NCBI GenBank assembly: GCA_041674765.1
Contig: JBAYVE010000004.1
Location: 26,751-90,750 of the forward strand
Direction: 5' to 3'
Source: Patescibacteria group bacterium
Lineage (GTDB): Bacteria; Patescibacteriota; UBA1384; XYA2-FULL-43-10; 1-14-0-10-43-13
Length of the DNA: 64,000 bases
The notes beneath the pieces are model-generated. The model saw only the letters and a program-made list of their open reading frames with translations. It had not been told where the DNA came from and did no database searches. Made by a program: the position numbers and the translations under genes. Below, piece after piece: positions 4,173-56,228 of this stretch; the first letter of the stretch is position 1, and every line of letters starts with the position of its first letter.

Positions 4173-4267
4173 CTACCTCACCTAGCCTCTCCTAAACTAG
4201 GAGAGGGATTAAACAGGATCATTGCAATTATTTCCCCTCCTGGATCAGGAGGGGTTAGGGGAGGTAG
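4173..4267. mobile_element. MITE-like hairpin repeat block (left copy) with ctacctc...gaggtag termini
   Basis: ctacctcacctagcctctcctaaactaggagagggat + second hairpin cccctcctggatcaggagggg; 37-bp core identical to 4630-4666. Confidence 0.7.
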
Positions 4268-4653
4268 TAAAAATAGAATATATTTTCAATAATAAAGATA
4301 GTGCTGATCTCAGGCGCAATCTTCGGAAGAATATGCCTATTACAGAAGTGGTTATTTGGCAGAGAATCAGGGCGGGCCAATTGGGTGGCTATAAGTTCAA
4401 AAGACAATATAGCGCCGCTAATTTTATTTTGGATTTTTACTGCCCATTAAAGAGACTAGCGATCGAGCTTGACGGTGAAAGCCATTATTTGGGCAACCAA
4501 AAAGAATACGATAAAGACAGAACTAAATATCTGAATTCGCTAAATATAAAGGTTGTTCGATTTACCAATAAAGAAGTGATGGAGAATATTGAGGGCGTGA
4601 TTGAGAGGATACTATCAATTTTAAATGAACCTACCTCACCTAGCCTCTCCTAA
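4222..4653 (+). CDS. DUF559 (Vsr/endonuclease-fold) domain protein
   Basis: LRRNLRKNMPITEVVIWQRIRAGQLGGYKFKRQ...ILDFYCP..LAIELDGESH...VVRFTNKEV matches the DUF559 signature. The ATG at 4222 lies inside the left repeat block, so the true start is uncertain. Confidence 0.75.
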   Translation: MQLFPLLDQEGLGEVVKIEYIFNNKDSADLRRNLRKNMPITEVVIWQRIRAGQLGGYKFKRQYSAANFILDFYCPLKRLAIELDGESHYLGNQKEYDKDRTKYLNSLNIKVVRFTNKEVMENIEGVIERILSILNEPTSPSLS

Positions 4654-4773
4654 ACTAGGAGAGGGATCAGAACGGGATCATCATGGCTACTTTCCCTTAT
4701 TTGATTAGGAGTGATTAGTAGGGCCATTGCAGCTACTTTTCCTTCTTCGATTAGGAGGGATTAAGGGAGGTAG
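4630..4773. mobile_element. MITE-like hairpin repeat block (right copy), direct repeat of 4173-4267 with a longer middle
   Basis: Same 37-bp core, shared ggatcat/attgca middle and terminal ...gggaggtag; overlaps the 3' end of the DUF559 ORF. Confidence 0.7.
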
Positions 4774-5544: not shown

Positions 5545-6100
5545 TTTTTCCTTTTCTTCCCCTCATTTTTAAGGAGGGGCTAGGGGTGGTTTATTTATTA
5601 ATTTTCAATTTTTAATTTAAATTTTTCTAATAACTATCAACGGATCAAATCTCTTCTAGCGTGTCATCCTCGGGACCGGCGGTGTTCTCTAGAGTGGTGC
5701 CTCATTCGAGTCTGCCTTCGATTCACACTCAGGCCCTGAGCCTGTCGAATGGGAGCCTGAGGGCTCTTCCCTCAGAGTCGAAGACCGGGGACCCAATTCC
5801 TTTTTTGCGGTGTCATCCTGAGGAACCGAAGGATCTCTGAACTTGTTTCAGGTGGCATTGACTTCGCATTCGCGAGGGATTCTTCGCCTCCTCAGAATGA
5901 CAGACTAATATGGTGTATAACTGATAGATTCTTCGCCTCCGAGAACATTGGCTCAGAATGACAGTTGTTATGGTGTATGTAATCACCATATGGTGATATT
6001 GACCACTCATTAACTTTATTATATACTTGCTCATCGTTCTTGTCAAGGCTTGCTTTGGTGAGAATGTTTTAAATATCAATCGAGCTCAAATTATGCTTTC
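5545..6100. repeat. Cluster of dispersed MITE-like repeats. Modules present: gtcatcctcgggacc; cctcagagtcgaagaccgggg; ctcagaatgacag; gattcttcgcctcc
   Basis: Modules recur at 20512-20740, 27545-27684, 30047-30225, 36294-36700, 40865-41000 and 45685-45960; no convincing ORF. Confidence 0.8.
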
Positions 6101-6150
6101 AAGCCTGGTTGGAGCTAGGACCTACACAACCTAGAGCGGGAGGGAAAGGT

Positions 6151-6789
6151 ATGCCAAGAATAGAGAGTGCAATTATCATCACTGATGATATGCGTAATCT
6201 GTTGATGCATTGTTGCCGATTGAGTGGGCTGACTCAGAAAGAGCTTGCTCGGAGGGCAGGAGTGGAACAGTCATGGGCTAGCAGAGCCTTAAATGGGAGT
6301 CGGAAACGTGTCGAGAGAGCGCTTATTCAAAGTACGGTCAAGGTAGTGGCGTCTGCCCTTGAAGAAAAACAGGAGATAGATTGCGAGCAAGCAGCAGCGC
6401 ACCTAAGAAGCGCTTTCGGCGTCGGCGGCGAGCTGGTTACAAATACAGCCATGTTGTTCCGGACGATAGCCATCACCGGGCTTGTAAATTGCGGTCTCGG
6501 AATGACCGATGAGCAGGCCGTGGTATTCTGCAACCTGCCCTGTCTATTCACGCGTTTAGAAGCAGTGAAAACGATTCTGCGCGGCTTGGTTGCTATTGCC
6601 AATGCGTCAAATGGCAAGGCAGCGGAAGCTGTCGGCCAAATGATTATTGTGGGGATTGTCAATTGCGGTCTTGGGATCACGGAAGACCAGGCCAAGAAAT
6701 TCGTCTCACAACCGAATCTGGGCGAGAGAATTGACAGTGTATTGAGTGCAATGAGTGCCATCGCGGCCGCATTCGAAACTGGCAATTGA
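6151..6789 (+). CDS. HTH (XRE-like) domain protein with two CGLG repeats, paralog A
   Basis: RBS gggagggaaaggt before the ATG; LTQKELARRAGVEQSWASRAL helix-turn-helix; internal repeats GLVNCGLGMTDEQAVVF and GIVNCGLGITEDQAKKF; GC about 52% versus about 41% in flanking DNA. Confidence 0.7.
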   Translation: MPRIESAIIITDDMRNLLMHCCRLSGLTQKELARRAGVEQSWASRALNGSRKRVERALIQSTVKVVASALEEKQEIDCEQAAAHLRSAFGVGGELVTNTAMLFRTIAITGLVNCGLGMTDEQAVVFCNLPCLFTRLEAVKTILRGLVAIANASNGKAAEAVGQMIIVGIVNCGLGITEDQAKKFVSQPNLGERIDSVLSAMSAIAAAFETGN

Positions 6790-6815
6790 GAAGAAGCGAA
6801 AGGAAGGGGGCAAAT

Positions 6816-7463
6816 ATGCCGCAGGTGGAAGTTACCCTACTAACGGGAGAGATGACAGATCTTCTCGTTAAATGTGTGAAAACGAGCAAGCTCAACCAGA
6901 AGGAATTGGCCGAAAAGGCGGGAGTACAACAATCATGGCTAAGCCGTCTTTTGAGGGGGGATCGCCATCGTTTAGAGGTAGAGTCGATCAATAAAGTTGT
7001 CGGAGCATTGGCTAAAACACTTGACACGATGGGCGCTGCTGCAAGCAATCAAGCAACATATCTCAGAGAAGTCTTCTTTGGCGATGTACTGAATGCCGGG
7101 CCAATGAGTGCTGTCAAAAAGATGGCTGTGATTGGGCTGATGAAATGCGGCCTCGGCATCGACGCAGATAGGGCGGGGGAAATGTTTGATAGTGATCCCT
7201 GTCTGATGACGAAAGTGCAGGGAGCCATTCAAGTGCTTAAGGCGATTGAGGCAATCATCAATGCAATCCCTGACAGTCTCAAGGACGCGGCAGTTGGGGA
7301 GATGATCACATCAGGGATCGAAGATTGTGGCTTTGGAACTCCTCATGATGTTGCCCGTGAATTCTGTAAGCCTGACGCGAAGGAAAAAATACAGAGGGCA
7401 GTGAGTGCCTTGAGCGGAGTGAGCGTCGTCATCGAGATCGCCCGAGGCGAGGATCGAAGTTAA
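6816..7463 (+). CDS. HTH (XRE-like) domain protein with two CGLG repeats, paralog B
   Basis: RBS aggaaggggg; LNQKELAEKAGVQQSWLSRLL HTH; repeats GLMKCGLGIDADRAGEMF and GIEDCGFGTPHDVAREF; same architecture as 6151-6789. Confidence 0.7.
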   Translation: MPQVEVTLLTGEMTDLLVKCVKTSKLNQKELAEKAGVQQSWLSRLLRGDRHRLEVESINKVVGALAKTLDTMGAAASNQATYLREVFFGDVLNAGPMSAVKKMAVIGLMKCGLGIDADRAGEMFDSDPCLMTKVQGAIQVLKAIEAIINAIPDSLKDAAVGEMITSGIEDCGFGTPHDVAREFCKPDAKEKIQRAVSALSGVSVVIEIARGEDRS

Positions 7464-8949: not shown

Positions 8950-9060
8950 GTTGGTCATCTCGACATCCGCCTCTGGCGAGACGAGAGATCTTCATTTGAG
9001 TGTTTGATTCTGGATTCCCGCCTACGCGGGAATGACAGCAGAAGAGGCGGTACATCAATG
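8950..9060. repeat. MITE-like repeat (ggattcccgcctacgcgggaatgac hairpin plus companion module)
   Basis: One mismatch from the 24-bp hairpins at 52013-52036 and 52214-52237. Confidence 0.7.
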
Positions 9061-9106
9061 ATAGATTGCTTCGCAAAGACACTCGCAATGACAGGTAAAA
9101 ATATTT

Positions 9107-20511: not shown

Positions 20512-20740
20512 TTCAGCTCCAAATGTCATCCTCGGGACCAATGGTGATCTTGGAAATGGTACCCGGGGATCCAATTCCTTATTTATATTAGAGGACAGGG
20601 GGCTCTTTCTCTTCGAGTCTGAGCGACGAGGTCGCTAGGCCTCAGAGTCGAAGACCGATGCCTGAATAATTCTATAAACCCCCTCTAGCTCCCCCTTGAG
20701 AAGGGGGAGAAAATAGTGTTTTGGTAAGATTCAATTGGAT
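20512..20740. repeat. MITE-like repeat cluster. Modules present: gtcatcctcgggacc; gaggacagggggctctttctcttcgagtctgag; cctcagagtcgaagaccg; ctcccccttgagaagggggag hairpin
   Basis: Modules shared with 5545-6100, 36430-36480 and 45790-45830. Confidence 0.8.
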
Positions 20741-23049: not shown

Positions 23050-25223
<2,174 letters not shown>

Positions 25224-26881: not shown

Positions 26882-27544
26882 ATGAACCCAGAACAATTTA
26901 GCGACGTTGGCGTTAGGCAGCCAAAAGATATGTCCCCAATGGATATACCCAGTGGGGTCGATCTTCATGAAAATAAGCTTCTTGACGACCAGGGAAGAGC
27001 CATTTTTAAATATGGCCTAGAGAGGATGTTGGCCGGGTCTATCAGGACTTTTGGAGAAGAACCAGATTCTCCAGCCGAGTATACCGATGGATCACTTCTC
27101 ATTTTTCAGCCCGGCTATTTTTATGTTCATGTAGCGAAACGAGACTTAGCAGCAGAAGAAATCAACAGTATTGGGCAGCTAGTAGCCGATCTAGATATTA
27201 AGTATAGCTATCACGAGTATCTAGCAAAGGCAGTGAAACAACTGGATGAAATTGCGCAGACAGCAAAACCACTCGAACTATCAAGGGCAAGGGTTGAGTC
27301 GGAGTATATTGTTGGGGAGAAAAGTAATACTGGTTTCGCTGATGATGCAATGAACAAGGAACTCGCTGATCTGGGTGTTATAGCTGGCAAAATGAGAGAA
27401 CGCCTTCCTGTCCTGCACGCTGAGATCTTGTCGATTCAAACAAATTTAAAAGAACTTGGAGTCTCGCTTATTCGAAGTCAAACTGGTGATCAAACTGGTG
27501 GAAGAGCGTTTCCAATCGGATTAGTTAGAGCGGATATTGAATAA
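26882..27544 (+). CDS. hypothetical protein inserted between gatC and gatA
   Basis: Strong RBS aaaggagat; 220 aa with no motif I recognise; followed by a MITE-like repeat. Confidence 0.55.
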   Translation: MNPEQFSDVGVRQPKDMSPMDIPSGVDLHENKLLDDQGRAIFKYGLERMLAGSIRTFGEEPDSPAEYTDGSLLIFQPGYFYVHVAKRDLAAEEINSIGQLVADLDIKYSYHEYLAKAVKQLDEIAQTAKPLELSRARVESEYIVGEKSNTGFADDAMNKELADLGVIAGKMRERLPVLHAEILSIQTNLKELGVSLIRSQTGDQTGGRAFPIGLVRADIE

Positions 27545-27684
27545 ATAATTGCCCCTTGGTTGTCATTTCGACTCCCTGATGTGTTGTCAGGGGCGGAGAA
27601 ATCTTTTGCGGCACAATGGCGTTAAGTCAGTCTAAAGATCTCTCGGCTGGCTACCGCCGCTCGAGATGACAGAAAAGAAAAACA
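27545..27684. repeat. MITE-like repeat (gtcatttcgactccctgatgtgttgtcagggg ... ctcgagatgacag)
   Basis: Near-copy at 36312-36350. Confidence 0.7.
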
Positions 27685-29179: not shown

Positions 29180-30046
29180 ATGGGATCCCCGGGTCATGGC
29201 TTTGCCTGCTCCGAGGATGATAAGGAGAAAATGGGTAAACGAGCACAAATCAGGAGGGAGAAAAAAGAATATGTTCAAAAGGTTCGCAAGGAAACTTTGC
29301 GTATAATTGAGCGAAGCAAAAATCCTTGGGAAAACTTTTGGCGGACGATCAATTTCTGGATTTATTGTGCCTGTTTTATTGCTATTATCGCTTTCCCTTT
29401 CATTAAAAAGGACACTATGAATGGAATAGAAAACGCTGTCATCTATACCTCGATGGGAGATATAGAGATCGAATTGTACTCAAAGGATGCGCCGAAGACT
29501 GTCGAGAATTTTGTCGAATTATCTAAGCAAGGTTTTTACGACAATTTAACATGGCACCGAGTTATTAAGGGGTTCATGATACAAGGTGGCGATCCGAAGG
29601 GCGACGGAACTGGAGGCGAGAGCGCCTTTGGTGGGACTTTTGAGGATGAAATTAACGCGACAGCCCTCGGCCTAGACAAACAGATTGTCAAAAACACTCC
29701 TTCTGTCTCCGGCCAAATTGGTACTGAGGATTTGGAAAAATATGGTCAGCTGACAGTAAAGGAATATTATGAACAGATCAAAGGTTACCAGTATAGTGAA
29801 AATCTAAAATCTCATAAGATGCAAGCCGGTTCAATAGCTATGGCTAATTCTGGTGCCGATACCAACGGAAGTCAATTTTTCATAATTACTGAACAGGATC
29901 AGCCCCATCTAGATGGTATGCACACAGTATTCGGCAGGGTGACGAAGGGCTTGGATATAGCCCTAAAAATTTCGGAGGTACCTGTTGACGACAGCGACAA
30001 GCCAATTGATCCGGTGATGATTCAGTCGGTAGAGATTGTTGATTAG
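29180..30046 (+). CDS. cyclophilin-type peptidyl-prolyl isomerase with N-terminal membrane/basic extension
   Basis: VIYTSMGDIEIELY..APKTVENF..GFYDNLTWHRVIKGFMIQGGDP cyclophilin core. Confidence 0.85.
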   Translation: MGSPGHGFACSEDDKEKMGKRAQIRREKKEYVQKVRKETLRIIERSKNPWENFWRTINFWIYCACFIAIIAFPFIKKDTMNGIENAVIYTSMGDIEIELYSKDAPKTVENFVELSKQGFYDNLTWHRVIKGFMIQGGDPKGDGTGGESAFGGTFEDEINATALGLDKQIVKNTPSVSGQIGTEDLEKYGQLTVKEYYEQIKGYQYSENLKSHKMQAGSIAMANSGADTNGSQFFIITEQDQPHLDGMHTVFGRVTKGLDIALKISEVPVDDSDKPIDPVMIQSVEIVD

Positions 30047-30225
30047 AGTTCCTTTGTCATTCCAGACTGTAAGCTTGATCCGCTAGCTAGCGGGCTGGAA
30101 TCCAGTTACCTGCACAAGCAAAGCAACTTCCTGGATTCCCGGATCATGGATCGCCCAACTATTAGATTTCAAAGGTTAAGGCTCATCCTGTCCGAGAATG
30201 ACAATACTTAATTTATGGGAAAGAT
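30047..30225. repeat. MITE-like repeat cluster (gtcattccagactgtaagcttgatccgctagctagcgggctggaatcc; ggattcccggatcatgg; gtcatcctgtccgagaatgac)
   Basis: Near-identical element at 40877-40930. Confidence 0.8.
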
Positions 30226-30228: not shown

Positions 30229-30708
30229 ATGAATTATAATTCGAGTTATCACAAAAAACAAAAATATCAGCAGCAGCCCGGTGTCGCCGAGGTTTTGATT
30301 GTTGGAATTTTTAAGATGCTTTGGTGGCTGGTCAGACTGCCATTTAGGGGGTTGAAGCTTGGTGTTAAGAAAACAGGCTTGAAGATCGAAGATAGAAGTT
30401 ATATCACTTCTAAAAGGTTAGAGGTCGAAAAAATGTTAAATGCTGAAAATCAAATAGAACTTAAACATGCCGTGATGGAGGCTGATAAATTAGTTGATTA
30501 TGCTTTGCAAGTAGCTGGATATCCGGGACAGACATTTGCTGATAGGTTTAGAAGTGTACGCAATTCTATCAGTCCATCATTGTATGATGAAGTTTGGCAG
30601 GGCCATATTGTCAGAAACCAGATAGCTCATGCGCAGGAGTCGAATATTATGAGTAGCGAATTACGAAATGCTGCCCGGAAACTATTGAATTATTTGGAGA
30701 GGATTTAA
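30229..30708 (+). CDS. membrane-anchored HEPN-like protein (R-N-x3-H motif)
   Basis: TM VAEVLIVGIFKMLWWLV; C-terminal HIVRNQIAHAQE matches the HEPN Rx4-6H motif; stop overlaps the next start. Confidence 0.4.
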   Translation: MNYNSSYHKKQKYQQQPGVAEVLIVGIFKMLWWLVRLPFRGLKLGVKKTGLKIEDRSYITSKRLEVEKMLNAENQIELKHAVMEADKLVDYALQVAGYPGQTFADRFRSVRNSISPSLYDEVWQGHIVRNQIAHAQESNIMSSELRNAARKLLNYLERI

Positions 30709-30709
30709 A

Positions 30710-31105
30710 ATGAGTGGAGAATTTGAAACCGTTGACCCACGTAATCCAAGGGAAATTTTCCATAGTCTTTTTGATACTTATAGTAACTTTCTTCTATCTC
30801 TTGAGCATGAGCAGTACGGTGGAATCGTTCAGGCCGGCGGCATCGAGTCCTATTCTAGACTAGGAGAGGAGAGGGTAGAAAAGGCTAAAAAATTTCAGGA
30901 TCACATCAAGTATGTGATGGGTATAGTCCGCTTGAGTGGAGCCGACATCGCACGATTGAAAGAACTGGAAGGCGAGCCCTCTGAATATCAATTTACCGAA
31001 GAAGAAGTACAATTCGCGTTAAAGACAGAAGCCAAAGTGAAGATTGCATTCGAGATGATGAAGGGGCGCGAAGATGAATACACAGAGGAGTTTCTGAAGA
31101 GCTAG
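30710..31105 (+). CDS. hypothetical acidic protein, translationally coupled partner of the HEPN-like gene
   Basis: TAAAATGA overlap; 131 aa with no motif I recognise. Confidence 0.5.
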   Translation: MSGEFETVDPRNPREIFHSLFDTYSNFLLSLEHEQYGGIVQAGGIESYSRLGEERVEKAKKFQDHIKYVMGIVRLSGADIARLKELEGEPSEYQFTEEEVQFALKTEAKVKIAFEMMKGREDEYTEEFLKS

Positions 31106-32637: not shown

Positions 32638-32710
32638 TAAGGAATTGGATTCCCGATGCCACTTCGCCAAGGCTATGAGGCACATGGTCAGGTCGGGAAT
32701 GACACTATTT
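32638..32710. repeat. 66-bp mini-element with inverted termini ggattcccga ... tcgggaatgac
   Basis: Read directly from the sequence. Confidence 0.75.
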
Positions 32711-34952: not shown

Positions 34953-36293
34953 ATGGATAAAATTACAATTGAGTCTAAGGGCATCGATATTAACGGAAAT
35001 GACTTTAGTCTCATCAAATCCGAAATAGCAGAGGCGTATCAAAAAATTGAAGACAAAAGCGGTGCCGGCAATGAGATGCTTGGCTGGGCTGATCTACCAA
35101 GTCAAATAAGCCAATCTGAAATCGTTGATATCAGGGAAACAGCAGAAAAAATCAAGGATAATTCCGATGCTTTTATTGTTATCGGCATTGGCGGTTCATA
35201 TCTGGGCTCCAGGGCAGTCATCGAAGCCCTGAAGCCATCATTTTTTAATAGTCTGCCAAAGAAGAAAAGGGATTACCCTGAAATTTATTTTGCCGGTAAT
35301 AATATCAGCGGAAAATATTTATCCGACCTTCTGCATGTTTTAGAAGGGAAGGATATCAGTATCAACGTGATATCGAAATCGGGGACTACGACAGAGCCGG
35401 CCATTGCATTTAGAGTATTCAAAGAATATCTGGAGAATAAGTATGGAAAGGACGAGGCGGCTAAGCGTATCATCGTAACTACAGATAAGGAAAAGGGTTC
35501 TCTTAAGAAACTCGCTGGTGACGAGGGCTATAAAACATTCGTCATCCCTGACAATATCGGCGGCAGATATTCAGTTTTGACTCCTGTGGGCCTTCTCCCT
35601 ATCGCTGTCGCAGGTATTGATATCGATGAACTAATCGGTGGCGCTAAAGCGAGTGAAGAAGATTTGAAGGGAAGAGATACTGAAAAAAATGACGCTTGTA
35701 TTTATGCAGCCGTACGTAATTTACTCTATCGGCAAGGTAAAAGCTTGGAGATCTTAGTAAATTATGAGCCTTCTCTTCATTATTTTGCCGAATGGTGGAA
35801 GCAGCTTTTCGGTGAGAGTGAAGGCAAAGGGGGAGCAGGAATCTTTCCGGCTTCCGTTGACTTCACGACTGATCTTCATTCTCTCGGGCAGTATATTCAA
35901 GCGGGAAAAAGAAATTTATTCGAAACGGTTTTAAATATACGGGATCAAGAACAGGACATTCCATTGGGGGAGGTCGAAGGAAATATTGATGGTCTGAACT
36001 TTCTTGCCGGAAAATCAATCAATTTTGTAAATCAAAAAGCTCTGGAAGCTACAGTTATGGCACATACGGACGGAGGAGTTCCAAATATTATCATCAATAT
36101 TCCAAAGATTAATGCTTATTATCTCGGCAATCTGATCTATTTCTTCGAGAAGGCTTGTGCTATCAGCGCTTACACTCTGGGAGTCAATCCGTTCGACCAG
36201 CCAGGCGTTGAGACCTATAAGAATAAAATGTTTTCTTTGCTCGGAAAACCAGGATATGAAGAACTAAAACCAGAGTTGGAAAAAAGAATCTAA
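34953..36293 (+). CDS. pgi: glucose-6-phosphate isomerase (short bacterial/archaeal type)
   Basis: [30 protein letters not shown] motifs. Confidence 0.85.
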
Positions 36294-36700
36294 ACATTTT
36301 TTATTTTATTTGTTTGTCATTTCGACACCTCAATGTGTTGTCGAGGTTTATTCAGGATCAAATTCCTTGCTTCCTCACCTTCTCGAGGGGAGGCTAGGTG
36401 GGGTGTATAAAATATAACTCCATTTGTTATTTTCTTTTTTTGAGGACAAAGGGACTTATTCTCTTCGAGTCTGAGAGTCTTTGATGTTTCTTTTTATCGA
36501 ATTGATATTTGCTAAGCAAAGTAACTGATCATCCCCCCATCGTCATTCCGGACTGTAAGCTAGAGATCTGGAATCTATCGTTATAATAGATCCTGAAACA
36601 AGTTCAGGATGACAGAATGAGTGAGGAGTTACTAAGCTAACTATTGACAAAATATTAATAATATACTATAATATATATAGATATCTGGATCTGATGGTAT
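36294..36700. repeat. MITE-like repeat cluster. Modules present: gtcatttcgacacc...; cctcaccttctcgaggggagg hairpin; gaggacaaagggacttattctcttcgagtctgag; gtcattccggactgtaagctagagatctggaatc; gatcctgaaacaagttcaggatgacag
   Basis: No coding potential; several modules match other clusters. Confidence 0.8.
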
Positions 36701-36714: not shown

Positions 36715-37029
36715 ATGAAAATTCCCATTCATTCAGGATGGTTGGCTGTTGCAACGGCCATGGTGACACTCGCGGCCACGGGTGTAATACCGTGGTTGTG
36801 GATAGTGTGCTGGGCAGCGGTGTTTGTAGCCTTTTGGCTCATTACATCGCGTTTCGGGCTTCACAGAACGTGGGCCGCTGATCCTGCTTCAGTATCCATC
36901 ATCGCAGTTGTTGGCATCGTCCAAGCAGGATTGATTCTGCAGAACTACTCCTTCCAGGGACTGGTATTGGCCTTTGGAAATATGGTCATTATCAGCCTGT
37001 GCTGGCTAAACATTCGAAGATTCAGTTAG
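36715..37029 (+). CDS. small polytopic membrane protein (GC-rich, about 55%)
   Basis: 104 aa, 3-4 hydrophobic helices, W-rich; composition differs from the neighbouring genes. Confidence 0.45.
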   Translation: MKIPIHSGWLAVATAMVTLAATGVIPWLWIVCWAAVFVAFWLITSRFGLHRTWAADPASVSIIAVVGIVQAGLILQNYSFQGLVLAFGNMVIISLCWLNIRRFS

Positions 37030-37092
37030 CCAGTCAGTTAGCCAGTATGTATAATGCTACCCCTCGCCCAACTAGGTGAGGGGACAGCTATA
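37030..37092. repeat. ttagccagtcagttagccagt direct repeat plus cccctcgcccaactaggtgagggg hairpin
   Basis: Read directly from the sequence. Confidence 0.6.
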
Positions 37093-38171: not shown

Positions 38172-39239
38172 TTATGACTGTGCTGCCAGCTTCCTTGCTT
38201 GGTCTTCGGTCATAAGGGCGTTAACTATCGGCTCGATATCGCCATCCATAATATTTGGCAGAGAGTGCCAAGATTGATTTATTCTGTGATCGGTAACACG
38301 ATCTTGAGGGAAATTGTAAGTTCTAATTTTTTCAGAACGATCCCCTGTCCCGACCTGAGAAAGACGCAAGTCCTTTCTTTCTTTTTGCAGTCGTTCTTCT
38401 TCGGCGGCCAAAATTCTTGAGCGGAGAATACTCATTGCCTTGTCTTTGTTCTTCATTTGGCTTCGTTCATCCTGACACTGCACTACAATGCCGGTAGGGA
38501 GGTGAGTGATTCGGACAGCGGAATACGTTGTGTTCACAGATTGTCCGCCAGCTCCTCCTGAGCAGAAGGTATCGATGCGGAGGTCTTCAGTTTTTATATT
38601 TATATCGGCCTCTTCTGCCTCAGGCAAGACAGCGACAGTAACGGTGGAAGTGTGGACTCTCCCCTGTTTTTCCGTTTCCGGCGTACGCTGAACACGGTGA
38701 ACTCCGCTTTCATATTTCATCTTCGAATATACTTTTTGTCCGCTGACTTCAAATGTGACTGACTTTAATCCGCCAATTCCCGTTGTTTGAGATTCCAAAA
38801 TGTTTGCCCGCCAACCTTGACGTTCGGCGAAGCGGGTATAAAGGCGGAATAACTCGGCGGCGAATAATTCTGATTCGTCTCCGCCCGCTCCTGGCCTTAT
38901 TTCAATAATAGAGTTTTTTTCATCGTTCGGATCTTTTGGCAGGAGAGCCAATTCCAACTCTTTCTCCATCTTGTCTTTCTTGGGATTTAGTCGGTTTATT
39001 TCTTCGTGCGCCATCTCTCTGAGTTCTTCGTCGCTAGAACTGATCATCTCTTCGCTATCGGAGATATTCTTGAGTACGCTAAAATAAGAATTGATTAATT
39101 GTGCAAGATCATCAAGACTGGATTTCTCTCTTGCAATTTTAGTGAATTCTGCATTATTGGCTTGAATTTCAGGCCTCTCTAAGCTTGCTGAGAGTTCGTT
39201 GTATCTGTCTAAAATTTTTTGTAGTTTTTCTTTATTCAT
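38172..39239 (-). CDS. prfA: peptide chain release factor 1
   Basis: GGQ motif ([18 protein letters not shown]), PxT-like decoding region. Confidence 0.95.
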
Positions 39240-39284
39240 AATCTTTAAATGCTAAAGGTAAAATAACCGAAATAACGAAATCAT

Positions 39285-39322
39285 AGTTTTTAGTTGTTTA
39301 GTTTCTTTTCGCATTTAGCGTT
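39285..39322 (+). repeat. ribosomal-locus repeat copy A (ttagttgtttagtttcttttcgcatttagcg)
   Basis: Family also at 39862-39932, 40025-40093 and 40822-40860 (reverse orientation). Confidence 0.75.
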
Positions 39323-39415
39323 GTAATTAAAAAGCCAGCCTTTATCTCAATAATTATATTATAAAGATTTTGGGCCGACTTTAATACCCGCCTGCCGGCG
39401 AGGCAGGTAGAGTAG

Positions 39416-39700: not shown

Positions 39701-39861
39701 TTCAAAAACAGATTACTAATCATACAAATCTACAGATATCGAATTGTTACCGACTATTGGTAATCAATAATCCGTTAGTATTTGTTTTACTTGAATGATT
39801 CTATCACACTCTTGAACTTGAGTCAATAATATGATAAGATCGTACTTAGTTCAAGTTAATG

Positions 39862-39932
39862 CGAAAAACTAAAAGAAACGAAAGAACGAAATTTAGTTTT
39901 TTGTTGTTTAGTTTATTTTCGTATTTAGCTTT
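39862..39932 (+). repeat. ribosomal-locus repeat copy B (internally palindromic, about 70 nt)
   Basis: gcgaaaaactaaaagaaacgaaag...tttagttttttgttgtttagtttattttcgtatttagc. Confidence 0.75.
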
Positions 39933-40024
39933 AAAGGGGGAAGTCGACACATTCGTCTCAAATCTCTCTCCTTCCAAGGAGCCAGTCGAATGGATGAGGA
40001 TAATAAGAGAAAGTTCAGTTCAAC

Positions 40025-40093
40025 TCTAAAAACTAAAATAAACCAAATAGCGAAATTTAGTTTTTAGTTGTTTAGTTTATTTTCGTTTTTAGC
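40025..40093 (+). repeat. ribosomal-locus repeat copy C, 24 nt upstream of the rpsB start
   Basis: ctaaaaactaaaataaacc...tttagtttttagttgtttagtttattttcgtttttagc. Confidence 0.75.
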
Positions 40094-40116
40094 ATTATTT
40101 AGTAATAAGGATTTTT

Positions 40117-40821
40117 ATGAACCAGTTACCGAGTTTGAGAGAGATGCTTGACGCCGGTGTTCACTTCGGTCACAAGACCTCCAGATGGCACCCAAAAATG
40201 GCGCCTTACATTTACATTTCTAAATCTGGCGTCCACGTTATCAACTTGGAAGAGACAGAAGCGAAATTGAAAGAAGCAGTCGAATTCATCAGTCGTGAGG
40301 CTTCAGAAGGCAAAACTTTTATTTTTGTCGGGACCAAAAAGCAGTCCGGTGAAATTGTCAAAGAAGCTGCTGTTGAAGCGGGCATGCCTTATGTAAATGT
40401 TCGTTGGCTCGGTGGTACTATTACCAATTTTGAAGCTATCAAGAGCGCTGTCAAAAACTTTCAGAAACAAAAGGAAGAACTTGAAAAAAATAATGATCTG
40501 CCAAAGAGTGAACTCTCAAAACTTCGTAAAGAAGTTGCAAGAGGCGAAAAGTTTCTCGGCGGTTTAGTCGGTATGGACAGAAAGCCGGACGCGTTGATCC
40601 TTTTCGGTTCGTACGACGAGAAGATCGCACTCAGAGAAGCAAAAGGTATCAATATCCCCGTCGTCGCAGTTGTCGATACAAATGCTGATCCAAATGCTGT
40701 AGAGTATCCGATTCCTGCCAATGATGATGCCACAAAATCAGTAAAACTGATCGCAGACACTTTCGCTCGTGCTATCAAAGAAGCAAAAGCCAAGTCAGCC
40801 AAAGTAGCTGAAACAAAGTAA
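40117..40821 (+). CDS. rpsB: 30S ribosomal protein S2
   Basis: MLDAGVHFGHKTSRWHPKM N-terminus. Confidence 0.95.
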   Translation: MNQLPSLREMLDAGVHFGHKTSRWHPKMAPYIYISKSGVHVINLEETEAKLKEAVEFISREASEGKTFIFVGTKKQSGEIVKEAAVEAGMPYVNVRWLGGTITNFEAIKSAVKNFQKQKEELEKNNDLPKSELSKLRKEVARGEKFLGGLVGMDRKPDALILFGSYDEKIALREAKGINIPVVAVVDTNADPNAVEYPIPANDDATKSVKLIADTFARAIKEAKAKSAKVAETK

Positions 40822-40860
40822 CTAACGCTAAAAACGAAAAGAAACTAAACAACTAAGTAT
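40822..40860 (-). repeat. ribosomal-locus repeat copy D (inverted relative to A-C), immediately after the rpsB stop
   Basis: gctaaaaacgaaaagaaactaaacaactaa is the reverse complement of ttagttgtttagtttcttttcgtttttagc. Confidence 0.75.
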
Positions 40861-40864
40861 TACA

Positions 40865-41000
40865 TATTTCCCTCGTATGTCATTCCAGACTGTAAGCTCG
40901 ATCCGCCAGCTGGCGGACTGGAATCCAGGAAGTTTGGTCGTTATAATATAAAGTATTGGATTCCCGGATCATAGCGCTGTCTATCCGAGAATAACATTGG
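40865..41000. repeat. MITE-like repeat (gtcattccagactgtaagctcgatccgccagctggcggactggaatcc; ggattcccggatcatagcg; gagaataacat)
   Basis: Near-copy of 30055-30140. Confidence 0.8.
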
Positions 41001-41022: not shown

Positions 41023-41619
41023 ATGTCAAATATTACAGCAAAACAAATCGCAGATTTGAGAGCCAAAACAGGCATAGGAATGATGGAATGCAAGAACGCT
41101 CTTGTCGAGGCCGGCGGTAATGAAGAAAAAGCGATGGAAATCCTTCGCAAAAAAGGTGCAGCCAAGGCAGCTAAAAGATCCGAAAGGGAGACAAAAAACG
41201 GAATCATCGAATCATATATACATGCCGGTGGAAAAATCGGTGTAATGGTTGAAGTGCTCGCCGAGACAGATTTTGTCGCAAAAAACGAAGAGTTCAAAGA
41301 GTTTGCGCACGACGTTGCTCTTCATATCGCTGCGATGGCGCCGAAATTTGTTAGTCGTGACGAGGTCCCTGCAGAAGAAGTCGCAAAAGAAAGAGAAATC
41401 CTTCTCGAAGAAGTAAAAGCTTCTGGTAAGCCTGAGAATATTGCTGAAAAAATTGTAGAGGGCAGACTTTCAAAATTCTATAGTGAAATTTGTCTACTCG
41501 AACAATCTTTCGTCAAGAATCCGGACTTAACTATAAATGACCTTTTGAATGAAAAAATTTCTAAGATCGGCGAGAAAATCGTTATCTCAAGATTTTGTCG
41601 GTTTGAAATTGGAGCATAG
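41023..41619 (+). CDS. tsf: elongation factor Ts (short form)
   Basis: ITAKQIADLRAKTGIGMMECKNALVEAGG UBA-like N-terminus. Confidence 0.9.
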   Translation: MSNITAKQIADLRAKTGIGMMECKNALVEAGGNEEKAMEILRKKGAAKAAKRSERETKNGIIESYIHAGGKIGVMVEVLAETDFVAKNEEFKEFAHDVALHIAAMAPKFVSRDEVPAEEVAKEREILLEEVKASGKPENIAEKIVEGRLSKFYSEICLLEQSFVKNPDLTINDLLNEKISKIGEKIVISRFCRFEIGA

Positions 41620-41620
41620 A

Positions 41621-41712
41621 ATAGTGGAATGTAGAATGTGGAATGTAGAACGTGGAAGGGGGAACGTGGAATGGGCGATGGGGAACGGGGCAGAACGGGG
41701 GAAAGAATGGAA
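41621..41712. repeat. Purine-rich degenerate tandem repeat, second locus (ggaatgtagaatgtggaatgtagaacgtggaagggggaacgtggaatggg...)
   Basis: Shares ggaatgtagaacgtgga and gggaacgtggaatggg with 301-455. Confidence 0.8.
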
Positions 41713-45684: not shown

Positions 45685-45960
45685 TTCCTGAACCGACGCC
45701 AGTCGTCCGTACTCGATGCGGGATCTGCATCTTGATTCAGAATCAAATTCATTTATTGTTCGAGCTTGTCGAGAACTATTTGCTGTTTTTTCTTCTCTTT
45801 GAGGACAAGGGGACTCATTCCGAAGTCGTCCCCCTATCCTCAAACACCAACCCCCTACACGGTATAGAGGTATTCTTCTCTTTTATAAAAAATTGAACTC
45901 CTTTTAGTCGCCCTTCGGGTAAGTAATTTTTTATGTAGGAGAAGAATTATCTGTATAAAA
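45685..45960. repeat. MITE-like repeat cluster (gggatctgcatcttgattcagaatc; gaggacaaggggactcattccgaagtcg; cccctacacgg...)
   Basis: Modules shared with 23115-23145, 36430-36480 and 20590-20640. Confidence 0.75.
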
Positions 45961-46017: not shown

Positions 46018-46524
46018 TCAACCCCGTACGACCATTTCTCCTTCCGGCGTTGACGTGAGCCGTGATCGAATATCACAGAGTGTTTCCATGAGGGAGGGAT
46101 TGGCACGCGTACCTTCTTCGAGAAATGTCGCCTTGACTTGAGCCACGGCGTTGTCGAAGCGATCGAGGAGAAATTCCGGCAATTGGTCGATCGCTTTGAA
46201 GCCGATGATAACAGCACGAAACGCGCGGTGAGATCTGGCGACTTCCAGAAGTTTGATACATTGTACGGGGTCGGGTTGAATTTCAAGTTCAACTTCAATC
46301 CGCATGATTTGTGCCCATGTACTCTGCATGGACAAATCGTTCAGCCCTTGATTGAGATACCAACAGGCTTGTGAGCGAGCGAGTGCATTTTGTCGTGCTT
46401 GGCGAGAGATTTCATGCAAGGCGTTCGCACGGAGACTCGGTCTTGTTTTGGCGATACTGTACAGATCAGCGATAGAGCGCTGATTCAAAGGAATTCGAGC
46501 ATTCTTATCCAAGGGTTTGGACAT
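46018..46524 (-). CDS. hypothetical protein (GC-rich island)
   Basis: 168 aa, about 53% GC, divergent from 46862-47743. Confidence 0.5.
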   Translation of the reverse strand: MSKPLDKNARIPLNQRSIADLYSIAKTRPSLRANALHEISRQARQNALARSQACWYLNQGLNDLSMQSTWAQIMRIEVELEIQPDPVQCIKLLEVARSHRAFRAVIIGFKAIDQLPEFLLDRFDNAVAQVKATFLEEGTRANPSLMETLCDIRSRLTSTPEGEMVVRG

Positions 46525-46861
46525 GGGATTTCCTCCTAATCTGGATTGTGTAGATTGCAGGGAAGTCTTTCGGGAGACGTCCCCTGAATATATACAAAAA
46601 ATCTGGCTCGGAATCCGGCCAGTTTTATTAGCGTTTCAATATTTTAGAATGACGACACTAAAAAGCTGGCCTCTTTGCGAGGAAATCTACCTTACCAACT
46701 TTTCTAATACATAAATTCATTATGGGGATATATTAGCAAAGGAGGCTTGGAAAATCAATAGTACCATCTCGGCGTTGACTATTTAGCGTTTTTAGGTTAT
46801 GAATAGTCTAACTTGTCAAGGCTGGTATCTTGGCTTGATTTTTATGACGGGGGGTCGTTTC

Positions 46862-47743
46862 ATGGCAACTTTCGTATTACCAGAGAAAACGCAAATAGCA
46901 AAAATTGTTGACCCTGCTGTTAGAGCAGACACTGTGGCACGATTTGCGCTAGAGCATATTCTGCTCGCTCAGCACATCCAAGTGCTGATCACAGAGGGGA
47001 TGGAGCTGCCGTTGGAATACAAGGAGTATCTTTTTCCGACGGTAGGCAATATCTCACTGGCGCTCGGAGAGGGCTACGCTGATAATTTCGTCAGCAAGGC
47101 ACTTCGCCGTAGCAGGATTATCAGCCCTGAGGACAAATCATACCTCAGAATGCTGACCGAAGCCCGTTACTTCCGCCACTCTGCGAAGGAAATCGAAGCC
47201 TTACTAGCGAGAATTCGGAAAGAGATCGCCAGCGGCAAGGCTAGCGGCTACAGACTGCTGAAAAAGGAGTTTGGTTTTCAGCCGGTCGAATTGGGCAATT
47301 TTTGCCGGGATTTTCTAACGCCTGAACAGTGCGAGGCACGAAACTCTTTGGCGATTCACCACAAACCGGAGAGGCCAACTGATCCCCAGATCAGTGCTCT
47401 CATCTTGGCTGACGCTAAGGCCAGGCTTCGCGAAGGAAAAGCCGTGAGTGCTAAGTCTTATGCCAGGCTTCACCATATTGGCTTAGGCAGCGTCAACAAG
47501 GGACTTCGGGGACTGAGCCGTGACGAAGCGGCTGATAGAAAACGGATTCTGAAACAGAAGACCTTTTACCCGAATTCCCCTGATCCGGAAGTCTCTCTCG
47601 GAGTAGCCATCGATAATCTTTCGAAGATTGCCGAAAGTCCGGAAGTAACGCCGGCTCGTGCTGCAGAAATTGCTGATACGGTCGAATTTTATGTGGCGCG
47701 ATTGCGAGCATTGGCGGCAGATGCCGATCATGGCCCATCTTGA
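46862..47743 (+). CDS. hypothetical protein (GC-rich island)
   Basis: About 293 aa from MATFVLPEK; putative promoter ttgact..tatgaat upstream; no motif I recognise. Confidence 0.5.
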   Translation: MATFVLPEKTQIAKIVDPAVRADTVARFALEHILLAQHIQVLITEGMELPLEYKEYLFPTVGNISLALGEGYADNFVSKALRRSRIISPEDKSYLRMLTEARYFRHSAKEIEALLARIRKEIASGKASGYRLLKKEFGFQPVELGNFCRDFLTPEQCEARNSLAIHHKPERPTDPQISALILADAKARLREGKAVSAKSYARLHHIGLGSVNKGLRGLSRDEAADRKRILKQKTFYPNSPDPEVSLGVAIDNLSKIAESPEVTPARAAEIADTVEFYVARLRALAADADHGPS

Positions 47744-47801
47744 TTCATTCTGAATCAAGATGGGCTTGTTTTATATCAGGAAATTCATTACATTTAGGTG
47801 T

Positions 47802-49103
47802 ATGACAAATATCAAAGATAAAATCAAAGATTTACCGAAAGAGCCGGGTGTTTATCATTTCATAGATGAAAAAGGCTCTGTTCTATATGTCGGGAAGGCC
47901 AAGAATTTACAAAACCGTCTCAGACAGTATTTCCTGAAAGAGCTTGGACGTGGTCCAGCGATAGAACAAATGGTAGAAAAAGCAAGAGATATTAAATGGA
48001 TCGAGACAGAATCGGAGATTGAGGCTGTCATACTTGAGGCAGAGCTGATCAAGAAGCTAAAACCGAAATATAATATCCGCCTCAAAGATGATAAAAGCTT
48101 TTTGGTGATTAGAATTACTAAAGAAGATTTCCCAATCGTTGAATTGGTTCGCTTTCGAAATGTCGATTTATCGGACAAATCTGCTTGGTATTTCGGCCCA
48201 TATCCTGCGGGGGAACTCCTTAGAAAATCATTAAATTATTTGCGCAAGATCTTTCCCTTCCGCGATTGCTCTAAGGCAAAGTTCAATACTTACAAAAAGA
48301 AGCAGCGAACCTGTATCTATGGAGATATTAGGGTTTGTTCTGGCCCCTGCAACGCCTGGGTGAATAAATCTCAATATAATAAGAATATTATCTATCTAAA
48401 AAATTTCCTCCGGGGTAAGAAAGGAAAGATTATTGCCGACTTGGAAAAGGAGATGAAAGCCTTTAGTCGAGCACAGCGATTTGAACAAGCGGCGCTAGTC
48501 CGGAATAAGCTAGCGGGACTTGAACACTTAAAAGATGTGGCCTTGGGCCTCAGAGACGACGTTTTCAACGGCAGAGAGGTGTCTTTCCATCGAATAGAGT
48601 TTTATGACATTGCGAACATCGGTAAAGAGCACGCTGTTGGATCAATGGTTGTCTTCACGGACGGCAAATCCGATAAAGACGAATACCGGAAGTTTAAAAT
48701 TGAGGATGAGATTTCTCCGACCTCGAAAACAGGGGGTCGAAATGACACTATTTTATTGAATAACGATCTAGGCCGCTTAAAGCAAGTTTTGCAGAGGAGG
48801 TTTAAAAATGATTGGCCAATGCCCGATCTAGTTCTAGTCGATGGCGGACCCCTACAGCTCAAGATTGCCAAAGAAGTAATTTCTGGTCTAGGGCTAAACA
48901 TTCCACTAGCTTCGGTTTCCAAAGGGCCTCGGCGGGAAAAGAATGATTTTCATTATGGCGACCTCAACATCGCAAATTTCATTGGCAATGATCGGCAACT
49001 CCAGAATATTTTGATAGAAGCGAGGGATGAGGCTCACCGCTTTGCAATTTCTTATTATCGCAAACTACATCGGAAAAGTGTTTTTCAAAATGACTCTCAA
49101 TAA
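47802..49103 (+). CDS. uvrC: excinuclease ABC subunit C homologue lacking the C-terminal HhH region
   Basis: GIY-YIG (PGVYHFIDEKGSVLYVGKAKNL..R), Cys-rich UvrC motif, UVR helix, RNase-H-like endonuclease region; only about 433 aa. Confidence 0.8.
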   Translation: MTNIKDKIKDLPKEPGVYHFIDEKGSVLYVGKAKNLQNRLRQYFLKELGRGPAIEQMVEKARDIKWIETESEIEAVILEAELIKKLKPKYNIRLKDDKSFLVIRITKEDFPIVELVRFRNVDLSDKSAWYFGPYPAGELLRKSLNYLRKIFPFRDCSKAKFNTYKKKQRTCIYGDIRVCSGPCNAWVNKSQYNKNIIYLKNFLRGKKGKIIADLEKEMKAFSRAQRFEQAALVRNKLAGLEHLKDVALGLRDDVFNGREVSFHRIEFYDIANIGKEHAVGSMVVFTDGKSDKDEYRKFKIEDEISPTSKTGGRNDTILLNNDLGRLKQVLQRRFKNDWPMPDLVLVDGGPLQLKIAKEVISGLGLNIPLASVSKGPRREKNDFHYGDLNIANFIGNDRQLQNILIEARDEAHRFAISYYRKLHRKSVFQNDSQ

Positions 49104-52004: not shown

Positions 52005-52245
52005 TCTGTATTGTCATTCCCGCGGAGGCGGGAATCTATACAATGTAAATTCCTTTTATGAAACTATATTATGTTTATATATTAGCGAGTGAAAAGAACG
52101 GAACTTTGTATATTGGTGTTACTTCTGATTCAAAGAAAAGGGTTTGGCAACACAAGAATAAATTGGTAGTGGGAAGATTTATATTTTAATATTTAAGGCA
52201 AAACAACTTCCTCGATTCCCGCCTCCGCGGGAATGACGGACAAGG
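52005..52245. mobile_element. Truncated GIY-YIG nuclease mini-element bracketed by perfect 24-bp inverted hairpin repeats
   Basis: gtcattcccgcggaggcgggaatc at 52013-52036 and its exact reverse complement at 52214-52237; internal ORF 52058-52189. Confidence 0.75.
52058..52189 (+). pseudogene. GIY-YIG nuclease N-terminal fragment (43 codons)
   Basis: MKLYYVYILASEKNGTLYIGVTSDSKKRVWQHKNK matches the GIY-YIG signature; ORF stops well short of a full domain. Confidence 0.7.
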
Positions 52246-52253
52246 AGAAAAAT

Positions 52254-52484
52254 ATGTGTCTTGCGATTCCTGGAAAAATTGAAAAAATCGAAGGCTCAAA
52301 GGCATTCTTTAAATATGATCATAAAAAGTATGAAGTTGATATTCTGCTGGCACCCGAAGTCGAGATCGGTGACTGGATCCTAATGCATGATGGCCGGGCC
52401 CTTTCAAAAATTACAGAAGAGGAGGCCAAAGAAAATTTAGAGTTTATAAAACAACACAAGGAAATGGCCTGTCTGCCTCATTGA
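52254..52484 (+). CDS. hypC: hydrogenase maturation factor HypC
   Basis: MCLAIPGKI N-terminus with Cys2, about 77 aa. Confidence 0.8.
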   Translation: MCLAIPGKIEKIEGSKAFFKYDHKKYEVDILLAPEVEIGDWILMHDGRALSKITEEEAKENLEFIKQHKEMACLPH

Positions 52485-52497
52485 AATGCGAATATAT

Positions 52498-53705: not shown

Positions 53706-53739
53706 AATGCGAATTAAGAAGATATGACTTTAAGTTGAA

Positions 53740-54621: not shown

Positions 54622-54675
54622 ATACTGATTATAGCAATTCTTTTTTATTTTATAAACTTTATGACTTTCGACTGT

Positions 54676-55935: not shown

Positions 55936-56193
55936 AATATTACGAATTAACAGTGCAATTTTTCTTAATTCTTTGTTTAAATCAACATAATGTTATTCAC
56001 TGATCAGTAAGCCAATACCCTTTTAATCGTGATTCCCTAAAACCCTATTAAATGTATTTATTCTTCGAATGGTGCTCTTAAAAATGAGAAGTCTGTTACT
56101 GTATTAATAAGTGACCATAGTTCTCGTCGTTCCTCCTCGAACAATAAGGAACAGGGAAATAGTAAGGTTTTCGGGATCACGTTCTTTTACCTA

Positions 56194-56222
56194 TTGACAA
56201 AAGTAACAATTAAGTATATAAT
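56194..56222 (+). promoter_or_regulatory. consensus sigma70 promoter TTGACA, 17-nt spacer, TATAAT
   Basis: Read directly at 56194-56199 and 56217-56222. Confidence 0.65.
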
Positions 56223-56228
56223 GAGTAT

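Follow-up and report, generated by a model that had tools for sequence, protein, structure and literature searches.

The stretch analysed here, 64,000 nucleotides of contig JBAYVE010000004.1 from a Patescibacteria group bacterium (the window), harbors about 23 short hairpin units of about nine stem types with the general form (T/C)GTC-AT-stem-loop-stem-AT-C. Judged from their sequence, these GTCAT…ATC hairpins are very probably CGTC/TGTC-tagged repetitive extragenic palindromes (REPs) and thus also Ssn-related motifs (SRMs), the name used in the following. A truncated copy of ssn, the gene of a small GIY-YIG nuclease, lies between two of them. An earlier note on this DNA had proposed a dispersed family of repeats resembling miniature inverted-repeat transposable elements (MITEs). 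The class has already been described, as CGTC-tagged REPs (Di Nocera et al., 2013) and as the SRM/Ssn pair (Chenal et al., 2025). The hairpins are a new member of this class in a new host lineage, the Patescibacteria.

Enrichment and anatomy of the hairpin units

A strict scan for spans of up to 70 nt with GTCAT, a perfect stem of 5 bp or more that starts at the AT, and ATC as tail detected 18 units in the whole window, compared to 2.2 ± 1.6 in dinucleotide shuffles. Intergenic DNA, which amounts to 8,141 nt or 12.7% of the window, contained 14 units versus 0.22 expected, and none of 500 shuffles gave more than 2. A relaxed scan (7 of 8 pairs, span of at most 140 nt) was noisy, yielding 17 matches with 9.9 expected, and served only to recover the units at 20525 and 30134. 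Degenerate copies were identified by BLAST with known units and with the junctions of relatives (5663-5795, 29183-29222, 30134-30202, 36315-36345 and 40957-40996).

The observation of the earlier note is borne out: the intergenic counts exceed chance, and all of its 13 sites carry the modules assigned to them. Further copies are located at 9064-9092, 29183-29222 and 48710-48746, the last one within uvrC. The two pairs described as near-identical share 92% identity over 51 nt (30055-30105 and 40878-40928) and 92% over 37 nt (23159-23194 and the inverted 36542-36578). The modules do not represent a single family: at least three unrelated families had been merged, the GTCAT or SRM hairpins and two others, termed B and C below. 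Two of the listed sites are devoid of SRM units proper, as 37030-37092 holds family C only and 45685-45960 holds a headless relative and family B only.

Each unit is an imperfect palindrome whose ends are unpaired, with the tag (T/C)GTC on the 5' side and a C, in most cases preceding (T/C)A, on the 3' side. The stem starts with an A-T and a T-A pair, followed by pyrimidines on the 5' arm. GTC is present in every strict unit by design of the scan. Among the positions not selected by the scan, the one preceding GTC is T in 16 of 19 units, C in 2 and G in 1; after the terminal C (ATCYR), a pyrimidine follows at +1 in 18 of 19 and A at +2 in 13 of 19, and the 5' arm is pyrimidine-rich. An 8-bp stem with a 4-nt loop is found at 9013-9036, 52013-52036 and 52214-52237, and an 8-bp stem with a 5-nt loop at 36589-36613. 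The remaining units have five to seven perfect pairs and loops of 10-40 nt, with a CYA tail in most of them. As single-stranded DNA (ssDNA), the canonical copies fold with -8.9 kcal/mol (z ~ -4.7).

Probable assignment to CGTC-tagged REPs and Ssn-related motifs

CGTC-tagged REPs, comprising the families CGTC-1 to CGTC-4, are defined by an unpaired CGTC tag, with TGTC or CCTC allowed, first pairs A-T and T-A, a stem of 8-9 bp, a loop of 4-5 nt and a short tail fitting CCA. They occur mostly as head-to-head (HH) dimers with the tags outside and spacers of 20-100 bp, while tail-to-tail (TT) dimers are rare. Intragenic copies are known as well, especially in uvr (excinuclease) genes, and according to the available text no dedicated transposase or enzyme was found. 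Neisseria dRS3 and Rickettsia RPE-4 (CGTC-4) and RPE-6 (CGTC-1) belong to this class (Di Nocera, De Gregorio and Rocco, 2013, BMC Genomics 14:522, PMC3733652).

The enzyme has been reported more recently. In Neisseria the motif goes by the name NTS (CGTCATTCCCGCGMAVGCGGGAATCYRG); SRM is the general term. Ssn, a single-domain GIY-YIG nuclease of 94 amino acids, binds the motif as ssDNA and cuts a few nucleotides upstream, as established by biochemistry on homologues from Neisseria and Wolbachia. Mutagenesis revealed a role in cleavage for the three bases preceding the palindrome and a role in binding for the C that follows it. SRMs are present on both sides of ssn in 42% of the homologues. In Neisseria, Ssn lowers the integration of NTS-carrying transforming DNA (Chenal et al., 2025, Nat Commun 16:2388, PMC11893778). 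The unit at 9010-9037 agrees with the Neisseria NTS consensus in 26 of 28 positions and the unit at 52012-52039 in 25 of 28. The positions outside the scan criteria, T before GTC and Y then A after ATC, are likewise in line with the published logo.

The units do not fit GTAG-tagged REPs with their RAYT transposases: the tag is (T/C)GTC, and no Y1_Tnp or other transposase was found in the Pfam-scanned genes or in the precomputed calls for the contig.

The ssn remnant and its cassette

The truncated ssn gene (52058-52189, plus strand) has 43 codons, of which about 39 are homologous to the family; the C-terminal half is lost. The product reads MKLYYVYILASEKNGTLYIGVTSDSKKRVWQHKNKLVVG… and matches a hidden Markov model of its family with E = 3e-22. 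Its relatives, all PF01541 members with 58-84% identity, are in many cases truncated or interrupted themselves. The fragment named in the earlier note is a real open reading frame (ORF), and it lies between perfect inverted copies of 24 nt, the left SRM at 52013-52036 (plus strand, fold z = -4.7) and the right SRM at 52214-52237 (minus strand), both with the tag outward. The SRM-ssn-SRM cassette thus spans 52013-52237, with an ssn gene that appears dead from its sequence. The connection of the repeats with a small GIY-YIG nuclease gene stands, with one decayed copy left in the window.

A search of the Neisseria gonorrhoeae chromosome, taken from a PLSDB record mislabelled as plasmid, gave a single match, a 94-amino-acid ORF among 12 NTS that is taken to be the SsnA ortholog on these grounds. 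The window fragment shares 65% identity with it over 34 amino acids (E = 1e-15). Both GIY-YIG tyrosines are retained in the fragment, and the lost half would hold the glutamate equivalent to E64, the cofactor-site residue of N. meningitidis SsnA that was mutated by Chenal et al. (2025, PMC11893778). Among comparison loci from other genomes, designated by L-numbers, ssn is broken by a stop codon in L083 and by a frameshift in L086, and is intact with 92 amino acids in L024, a metagenome-assembled genome (MAG) of the Moraniibacteriota. Tag-outward hairpins occupy the flanks of all three genes. The hairpin upstream of the L024 gene, GTCATCCTGAACTTGTTTCAGGATC, is an identical 25-mer to window positions 36589-36613.

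In view of the enclosed fragment, the earlier note had suggested that the family may consist of decayed homing-nuclease mini-elements. They would then be relics of a free-standing or intron-borne GIY-YIG enzyme that cuts a double-stranded target. The position of the fragment between inverted repeats would suit this reading. Weak matches to TIGR01453, the group I intron endonuclease family, point in the same direction. These matches reach 17.4 and 19.7 bits, far below the cut-off of 56. The full-length relatives are single-domain proteins of 92-97 amino acids without a DNA-binding extension, the characterized members cut ssDNA only (Chenal et al., 2025, PMC11893778), and an intron or intein context is absent. 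A homing origin is scarcely credible, and the fragment is better assigned, by sequence, to a single-domain ssDNA nuclease of the Ssn type. The PDB contained neither an Ssn structure nor a close relative; similarity to the UPF0213 structures 1ZG2 and 1YWL was only weak, and WD40 matches were spurious.

Within the SRM tag, the sequence GGAATGAC provides ATG codons at 23190 and 52233 that act as spurious upstream start codons, and ORF callers therefore stretch ligA and hypC into the repeat. The gene call of the contig itself starts hypC at 52254.

Dimer arrangement and signs of past movement

Adjacent strict units in the window are arranged plus then minus, i.e. HH with the tags outside, in four cases and in the opposite order in none. 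Three further HH pairs include a degenerate partner (among them 30056/30134 and 40879/40957), and the cassette 52013/52214 has the same orientation. At other loci, covering 2.4 Mb of unrelated sequence, 25 HH pairs were counted versus three opposite ones. This genome has three copies of one composite element: E2 (30056-30202), E3 (40879-40996) and one upstream of the window (L167, 7648-7775). The right end of the ssn cassette has a counterpart in the right subterminal sequence of this element.

Comparative evidence was obtained along a conserved backbone present in about 16 Patescibacteria loci, M48-ligA-PHP-gatC-gatA-(PPIase)-g30229-gatB-…-prmC-prfA-L31-rpsB-tsf-frr-rseP-proS-uvrC. A closer collinear relative is L169 (GCA_964543385.1), whose LigA is 79% identical. 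Its dimer at the gatC/gatA junction resembles the composite element of the window, and the right arm shares 95% identity over 38 nt with window positions 29183-29220 at the gatA/PPIase junction. The PPIase/g30229 junction of L169 carries a TTTCGA/CTCGAGATGAC dimer type, which in the window is located before gatA. That dimer types related to each other occupy different junctions in collinear genomes argues for past mobility. SRM types at the gatC/gatA junction differ among the window, L003, L011 and L169, and the identical 25-mer beside the L024 gene connects distant lineages. The unit in uvrC (48710-48746) is in frame and amounts to an insert of 12 residues, with a matching gap in the UvrC ortholog of L008. 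In-frame SRMs were also observed in other housekeeping genes of Patescibacteria, in gatA of L007 (8836-8871) and in prmC of L004 (14244-14279) and L011 (11869-11958). On this comparison of sequences, the units appear to have moved or to have been copied in the past of this lineage.

Classical MITEs, deletion derivatives of insertion sequences that depend on a DDE or another transposase acting in trans, would account for the inverted pairs of 75-150 nt with conserved spacers and for the same element types at several loci. This explanation is very unlikely. Flanking direct repeats of at least 2 nt were found at none of nine elements, seven dimers and two singletons, and neither the window (Pfam scan of genes) nor those parts of the contig that were sampled revealed a transposase or a RAYT. 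The sole gene found between such ends encodes a GIY-YIG nuclease, and each 'terminal repeat' is an autonomous hairpin that is also found singly. The label MITE-like is appropriate to the many inverted pairs and fails with respect to target-site duplications.

Several points weigh against the assignment to SRMs and against their mobility. The published degenerate SRM pattern, HGTCWYN(0-2)YYVSBRHN(0-5)WNVSBRGN(0-2)RNCYNB, has three matches in the window versus 0.13 in shuffles, and only two of these are true units (9010-9037 and 36541-36571). It is too strict for the variants present here: the copies at 52013 and 52214 fail by one loop base and the other units by loop length. Many loops of 13-40 nt exceed the 4-5 nt stated for CGTC REPs, and nearest-neighbour DNA parameters give weak folding for several variants, among them TTCTGAG, TCCTGAG and one TTTCGAC copy. 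The family model revealed no further copy of ssn, and no intact one, in the 64-kb window or in 8.8 kb upstream. The Neisseria units closest to ssnA point inward, and the architecture of the cassette is not uniform. For one of the two displaced dimer types, the evidence consists of a short match (14 nt, E = 0.024).

Proposed mechanism

By analogy with the characterized homologues, a single-stranded unit would fold into a hairpin. Ssn would bind this hairpin and cleave the ssDNA on the 5' side of the tag, at a distance of a few nucleotides. The gene-carrying form would be SRM-ssn-SRM with outward tags. HH dimers lacking the gene are best read as non-autonomous derivatives of this cassette and singletons as decayed dimers. 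A GIY-YIG hydrolase offers neither a covalent intermediate nor strand-transfer chemistry, which favors copying by break-induced or template-directed repair over true transposition. Present activity would need an intact ssn elsewhere in the genome. Without such a gene, the repeats would be relics, which may still affect the recombination of incoming ssDNA, as in Neisseria. A more extensive proposal is tentative and, taken as a whole, rather doubtful: the cassettes and the gene-less HH dimers would be true mobile elements, spread by break-induced copying through a hydrolytic GIY-YIG ssDNA nuclease without a transposase; in streamlined genomes of the candidate phyla radiation (CPR), the same variable junctions would be their recurrent targets or would arise with their help; and a parallel system of DUF559 genes and hairpins would exist.

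Units at 8954, 20525, 27562, 29183, 30056, 32648 and 36315 begin 6-21 nt past the upstream stop codon in arrays of same-direction genes. This position would suit host-selected elements acting at the RNA level on gene 3' ends, by mRNA stabilisation or attenuation of read-through, with an incidental link to the nuclease. Such a role of REPs has been proposed (Di Nocera et al., 2013, PMC3733652). It is an improbable explanation for the window. A U-tract after the hairpins is absent and none was called terminator-like. HH dimers put units in both orientations, so that any transcript would contain half of them in antisense. According to mutagenesis, the tag and the tail, which are conserved and asymmetric, matter for cleavage and binding of ssDNA by Ssn, and SsnA fails to bind RNA (Chenal et al., 2025, PMC11893778). 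Rfam at gathering thresholds gave no match in the window, and the type of unit at one junction varies among relatives.

SRM units along the window

The first cluster starts with a unit of the GTCATCCTCGG…CCGGGGAyC type (5663-5795, plus strand), whose loop is split by a family-B hairpin and whose tail is changed from ATC to ACC; its ends are those of 20525-20571. An HH dimer follows, with GTCATCCTGAGGAACCGAAGGATC (5812-5835, plus) as left and GTCATTCTGAGGAGGCGAAGAATC (5878-5901, minus) as right partner and a spacer of 42 nt. The unit at 5927-5962 (minus) resembles the right partner and has a 12-nt insertion in the loop. At 8954-8990 (plus), a unit of the ATCTCGAC stem type begins 6 nt after a stop codon and forms the left partner of an HH dimer. 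The canonical unit, TGTC-ATTCCCGC-GTAG-GCGGGAAT-CCAG, is located at 9013-9036 (minus); it combines the 8-bp stem and 4-nt loop with a CCA tail (-8.9 kcal/mol, z = -4.7). A unit of the ATTGCGAG stem type (9064-9092, minus) was detected by the strict scan.

The M48 peptidase gene ends 13 nt before GTCATCCTCGGGACC…GGTACCCGGGGATC (20525-20571, plus). In GTCATTCCGGACTGTAGCTTGAGATCCGGAATC (23162-23194, minus), the ATG of the tag overlaps the called start of ligA. A headless relative of the CCTGAA…TTCAGG unit, GGGATCTGTATCTTGTTTCAGGATC, is situated close by (23120-23144, plus), and a second copy with 88% identity at 45720-45744. Between the orphan ORF 26882-27544 and gatA, an HH dimer consists of a ATTTCGAC-type unit (27562-27603, plus) and a ATCTCGAG-type unit (27637-27670, minus). 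A solo degenerate arm with the head ATCAT (29183-29222, minus) follows the gatA stop codon by 14 nt.

The left arm of E2 is of the ATTCCAGA type with an enlarged, structured loop (30056-30102, plus) and its right arm of the ATTCTCGG…CCGGGAAT type (30134-30202, minus); the subterminal GCAAAGCAACTTCCT of the latter recurs at the right end of the ssn remnant. E3 is placed between rpsB and tsf. Its left arm (40879-40925, plus) is 92% identical to that of E2, and the head of its right arm (40957-40996, minus) has decayed from GTCAT to GTTAT. A single unit with a ATTCCCGA stem and a 40-nt loop lies between gatB and a DUF5654 gene (32648-32703, minus). In the cluster beyond, a partial unit, GTCATTTCGAC…, lacks the tail (36315-36345, plus) and is 85% identical to 27556-27588. 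It is followed by CGTCATTCCGGACTGTAAGC… (36542-36575, plus), the left partner of an HH dimer, and by the 25-mer shared with L024 (36589-36613, minus). The intragenic unit in the coding sequence of uvrC (48710-48746, minus) is of the ATTTCGAC type and is read in frame as …ISPTSKTGGRND….

Hairpin families B and C and the DUF559 genes

Family B, a separate repeat family, is a long hairpin (gaggacaagggg… / cctcagagtcgaagaccg). The best-preserved copy, GAGGACAGGGGG…TCTTCGAGTCTGAG…CCTCAGAGTCGAAGACC, is located at 20591-20657 (plus strand); other pieces are present at 5697-5787, 36442-36475 and 45801-45841.

Family C comprises hairpins with polypyrimidine stems (cccctc..gagggg) and an adjacent tag, ACCTCACCTAG-CCTCTCC-N7-GGAGAGG. 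Copies at 4175-4209, 4234-4266 and 4633-4667 flank a DUF559 (Vsr-like) gene outside the SRM family (locus 4175-4667, plus strand; ORF 4222-4653). Solo copies occur at 5557-5592, 20679-20709, 36373-36409 and 37058-37085. Five further DUF559 genes on unrelated contigs (L171, L172, L175, L176 and L178) have matching hairpins on both sides, so that all six loci are flanked, with the consensus CCYCACCTAG-CCYCTCC-loop-GGAGRGG. Within 150 nt of the six genes, 15 family-C hairpins were counted. The background density, taken from 2.4 Mb, is 0.26 per 10 kb. Many DUF559 C-termini ('TSPSLS', 'PSP') represent read-through of the downstream hairpin. A literature search yielded no paper linking DUF559 to repeats, and the association of DUF559 with hairpins is a more novel lead than the SRM finding.

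Cargo genes and junctions

The earlier note had placed the largest repeat clusters at the borders of cargo genes with anomalous composition. At 21 conserved backbone junctions, lineage-specific genes occur in 6 cases, SRMs in 7 and both in 3-4, a co-occurrence without significance (hypergeometric P ~0.06-0.3). The link of the repeats to 'cargo' genes is only suggestive. One of the proposed cargo regions drops out: 30229-30708 is conserved in 17 relatives and is therefore not cargo. The anomalous composition was confirmed for 6109-7463, 36715-37029, 46018-46524 and 46799-47743 (GC z > +2.1) and not for 26882-27544 and 30229-31105. The orphan 'cargo' genes had no match in Pfam, NCBIfam, PHROG or PADLOC that would indicate a function. 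An SRM-bracketed mobile cassette between 20525 and 23194 was considered and in part rejected: the enclosed MBL and DHH (pyrophosphatase) genes occupy the same place in L169 and are thus not an insertion specific to the window.

A perfect sigma-70 consensus (TTGACA, 17 nt, TATAAT; 12/12) is located at 36644-36672 within a repeat cluster, upstream of the high-GC ORF 36715-37029. The flanks of the high-GC orphan genes 46018-47743, at 45720-45744 and 47735-47763, share an inverted identity of 16 nt (CATCTTGATTCAGAAT); the latter flank is a perfect, terminator-like palindrome. A phosphoglucose isomerase (PGI) gene (34953-36293) is missing at the conserved g33594/prmC junction of every relative examined, and its top matches, with 55-67% identity, derive mostly from large non-CPR contigs, suggesting a horizontal acquisition on sequence grounds. 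A metagenome scan with PGI returned only relatives of at most 67% identity, mostly on large non-CPR contigs, and hence no close relative for an empty-site comparison at the DNA level.

Host lineage and other features of the window

The window has about 42% GC and contains a housekeeping run including secA, ligA, gatCAB, prfA, rpsB, tsf, frr, proS, uvrC and gap. Its sequence recurs without change within ENA contig ERZ27247358:k141_1979706 (92,114 bp). The best GatB matches among GTDB representatives, with 55-59% identity, are MAGs of Patescibacteria and Candidatus Berkelbacteria, which places the host, by sequence similarity, as a Patescibacteria MAG near Berkelbacteria. A tRNA scan of the window yielded zero genes and hence no tRNA as integration site.

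A [NiFe]-hydrogenase gene set (52233-59278) comprises genes for both hydrogenase subunits (large and small), for HypC and for FAD/Fe-S subunits. Three paralogous genes for 23S_rRNA_IVP four-helix-bundle proteins (PF05635) are located at 57098-57469 (minus), 60527-60907 (plus) and 61848-62198 (plus); they are low in GC (z -1.7 to -2.4), and the third one lies between the arms of a 43-nt inverted repeat, at 61780-61822 and 62204-62246. Intergenic tandem arrays of 7-nt repeats (GGAACGT / AGAACGT / GGAATGT) are present at 297-442 and 41610-41701, one of them between tsf and pyrH. AT-rich repeats of 60-85 nt near L31 and rpsB (39238-39323, 39848-39933, 40012-40097 and the inverted 40819-40865) are 85-94% identical to each other and show no relation to SRMs.

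Significance

Patescibacteria are tiny symbiotic bacteria that take up DNA. The known pairing of repeat and nuclease is now extended to this lineage, which is mentioned in the available text of neither description of the class (Di Nocera et al., 2013, PMC3733652; Chenal et al., 2025, PMC11893778). The in-frame insert in uvrC, the dimer types at different junctions and the 25-mer beside a distant CPR ssn supply comparative evidence for copying to new sites. This bears on a point that both articles, in their available text, leave open: the spread of CGTC REPs or SRMs with a hydrolytic ssDNA nuclease as the sole associated enzyme. The practical value is modest: CPR genomes hold many short, diverse SRM/Ssn pairs, which are possible ssDNA-cutting tools. 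The association of DUF559 with hairpins, if general, would be a separate instance of this design that had not been described before, and a parallel DUF559 system, if true, would imply a general class of elements composed of a small nuclease plus cognate hairpin.

Comparison with known systems

GIY-YIG homing endonucleases of the I-TevI type share the catalytic fold with the ssn product. They differ in being multi-domain enzymes with double-stranded targets, located in introns or free-standing in phages, and their family model is unmet here. REPs and REPINs mobilised by RAYT, an IS200/IS605-like Y1 transposase, are similar in design: tagged ssDNA hairpins, an HH dimer as the replicating unit and an enzyme gene flanked by its own repeats. 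The tag is GTAG instead of CGTC, and the enzyme is a tyrosine transposase with strand transfer, unlike the GIY-YIG hydrolase. Rickettsia RPE-4 and RPE-6 are known for in-frame insertion into protein genes, comparable to the uvrC copy; they reside in another host, and the window has one intragenic copy.

The dRS3/NIME arrays and 'minimal mobile elements' of Neisseria share the core palindrome ATTCCC-N8-GGGAAT and the mosaic intergenic clusters, mixed with other repeat families and located beside variable genes. The window has one to four units per junction and no large arrays, and statistics give no firm backing to a link with variable genes here. The differences from the SRM/Ssn system are the truncated ssn without an intact copy in about 73 kb, the diversity of about nine stem types in 23 units of one small genome, and the host, as Patescibacteria are not mentioned in the available text, where functional data on natural transformation refer to Neisseria only (Chenal et al., 2025, PMC11893778). 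Common to both are the 26 of 28 matching NTS positions, a small GIY-YIG gene with the motif on both sides, the nearly exclusive intergenic location and clusters near particular genes. CGTC REPs, in turn, differ in their shorter loops, since those of the window are often 13-40 nt long and structured, in the tag, as TGTC is the rule here with T before GTC in 16 of 19 units, and in the five phyla covered, according to the available text without Patescibacteria (Di Nocera et al., 2013, PMC3733652). They agree in the TGTC variant of the tag, the AT first pairs, the 8-bp stem and 4-5-nt loop of the units at 9013, 52013 and 36589 and the CCA-like tail, as well as in the prevalence of HH dimers, often conserved spacers of 20-100 nt, several families per genome and intragenic copies in an excinuclease gene.

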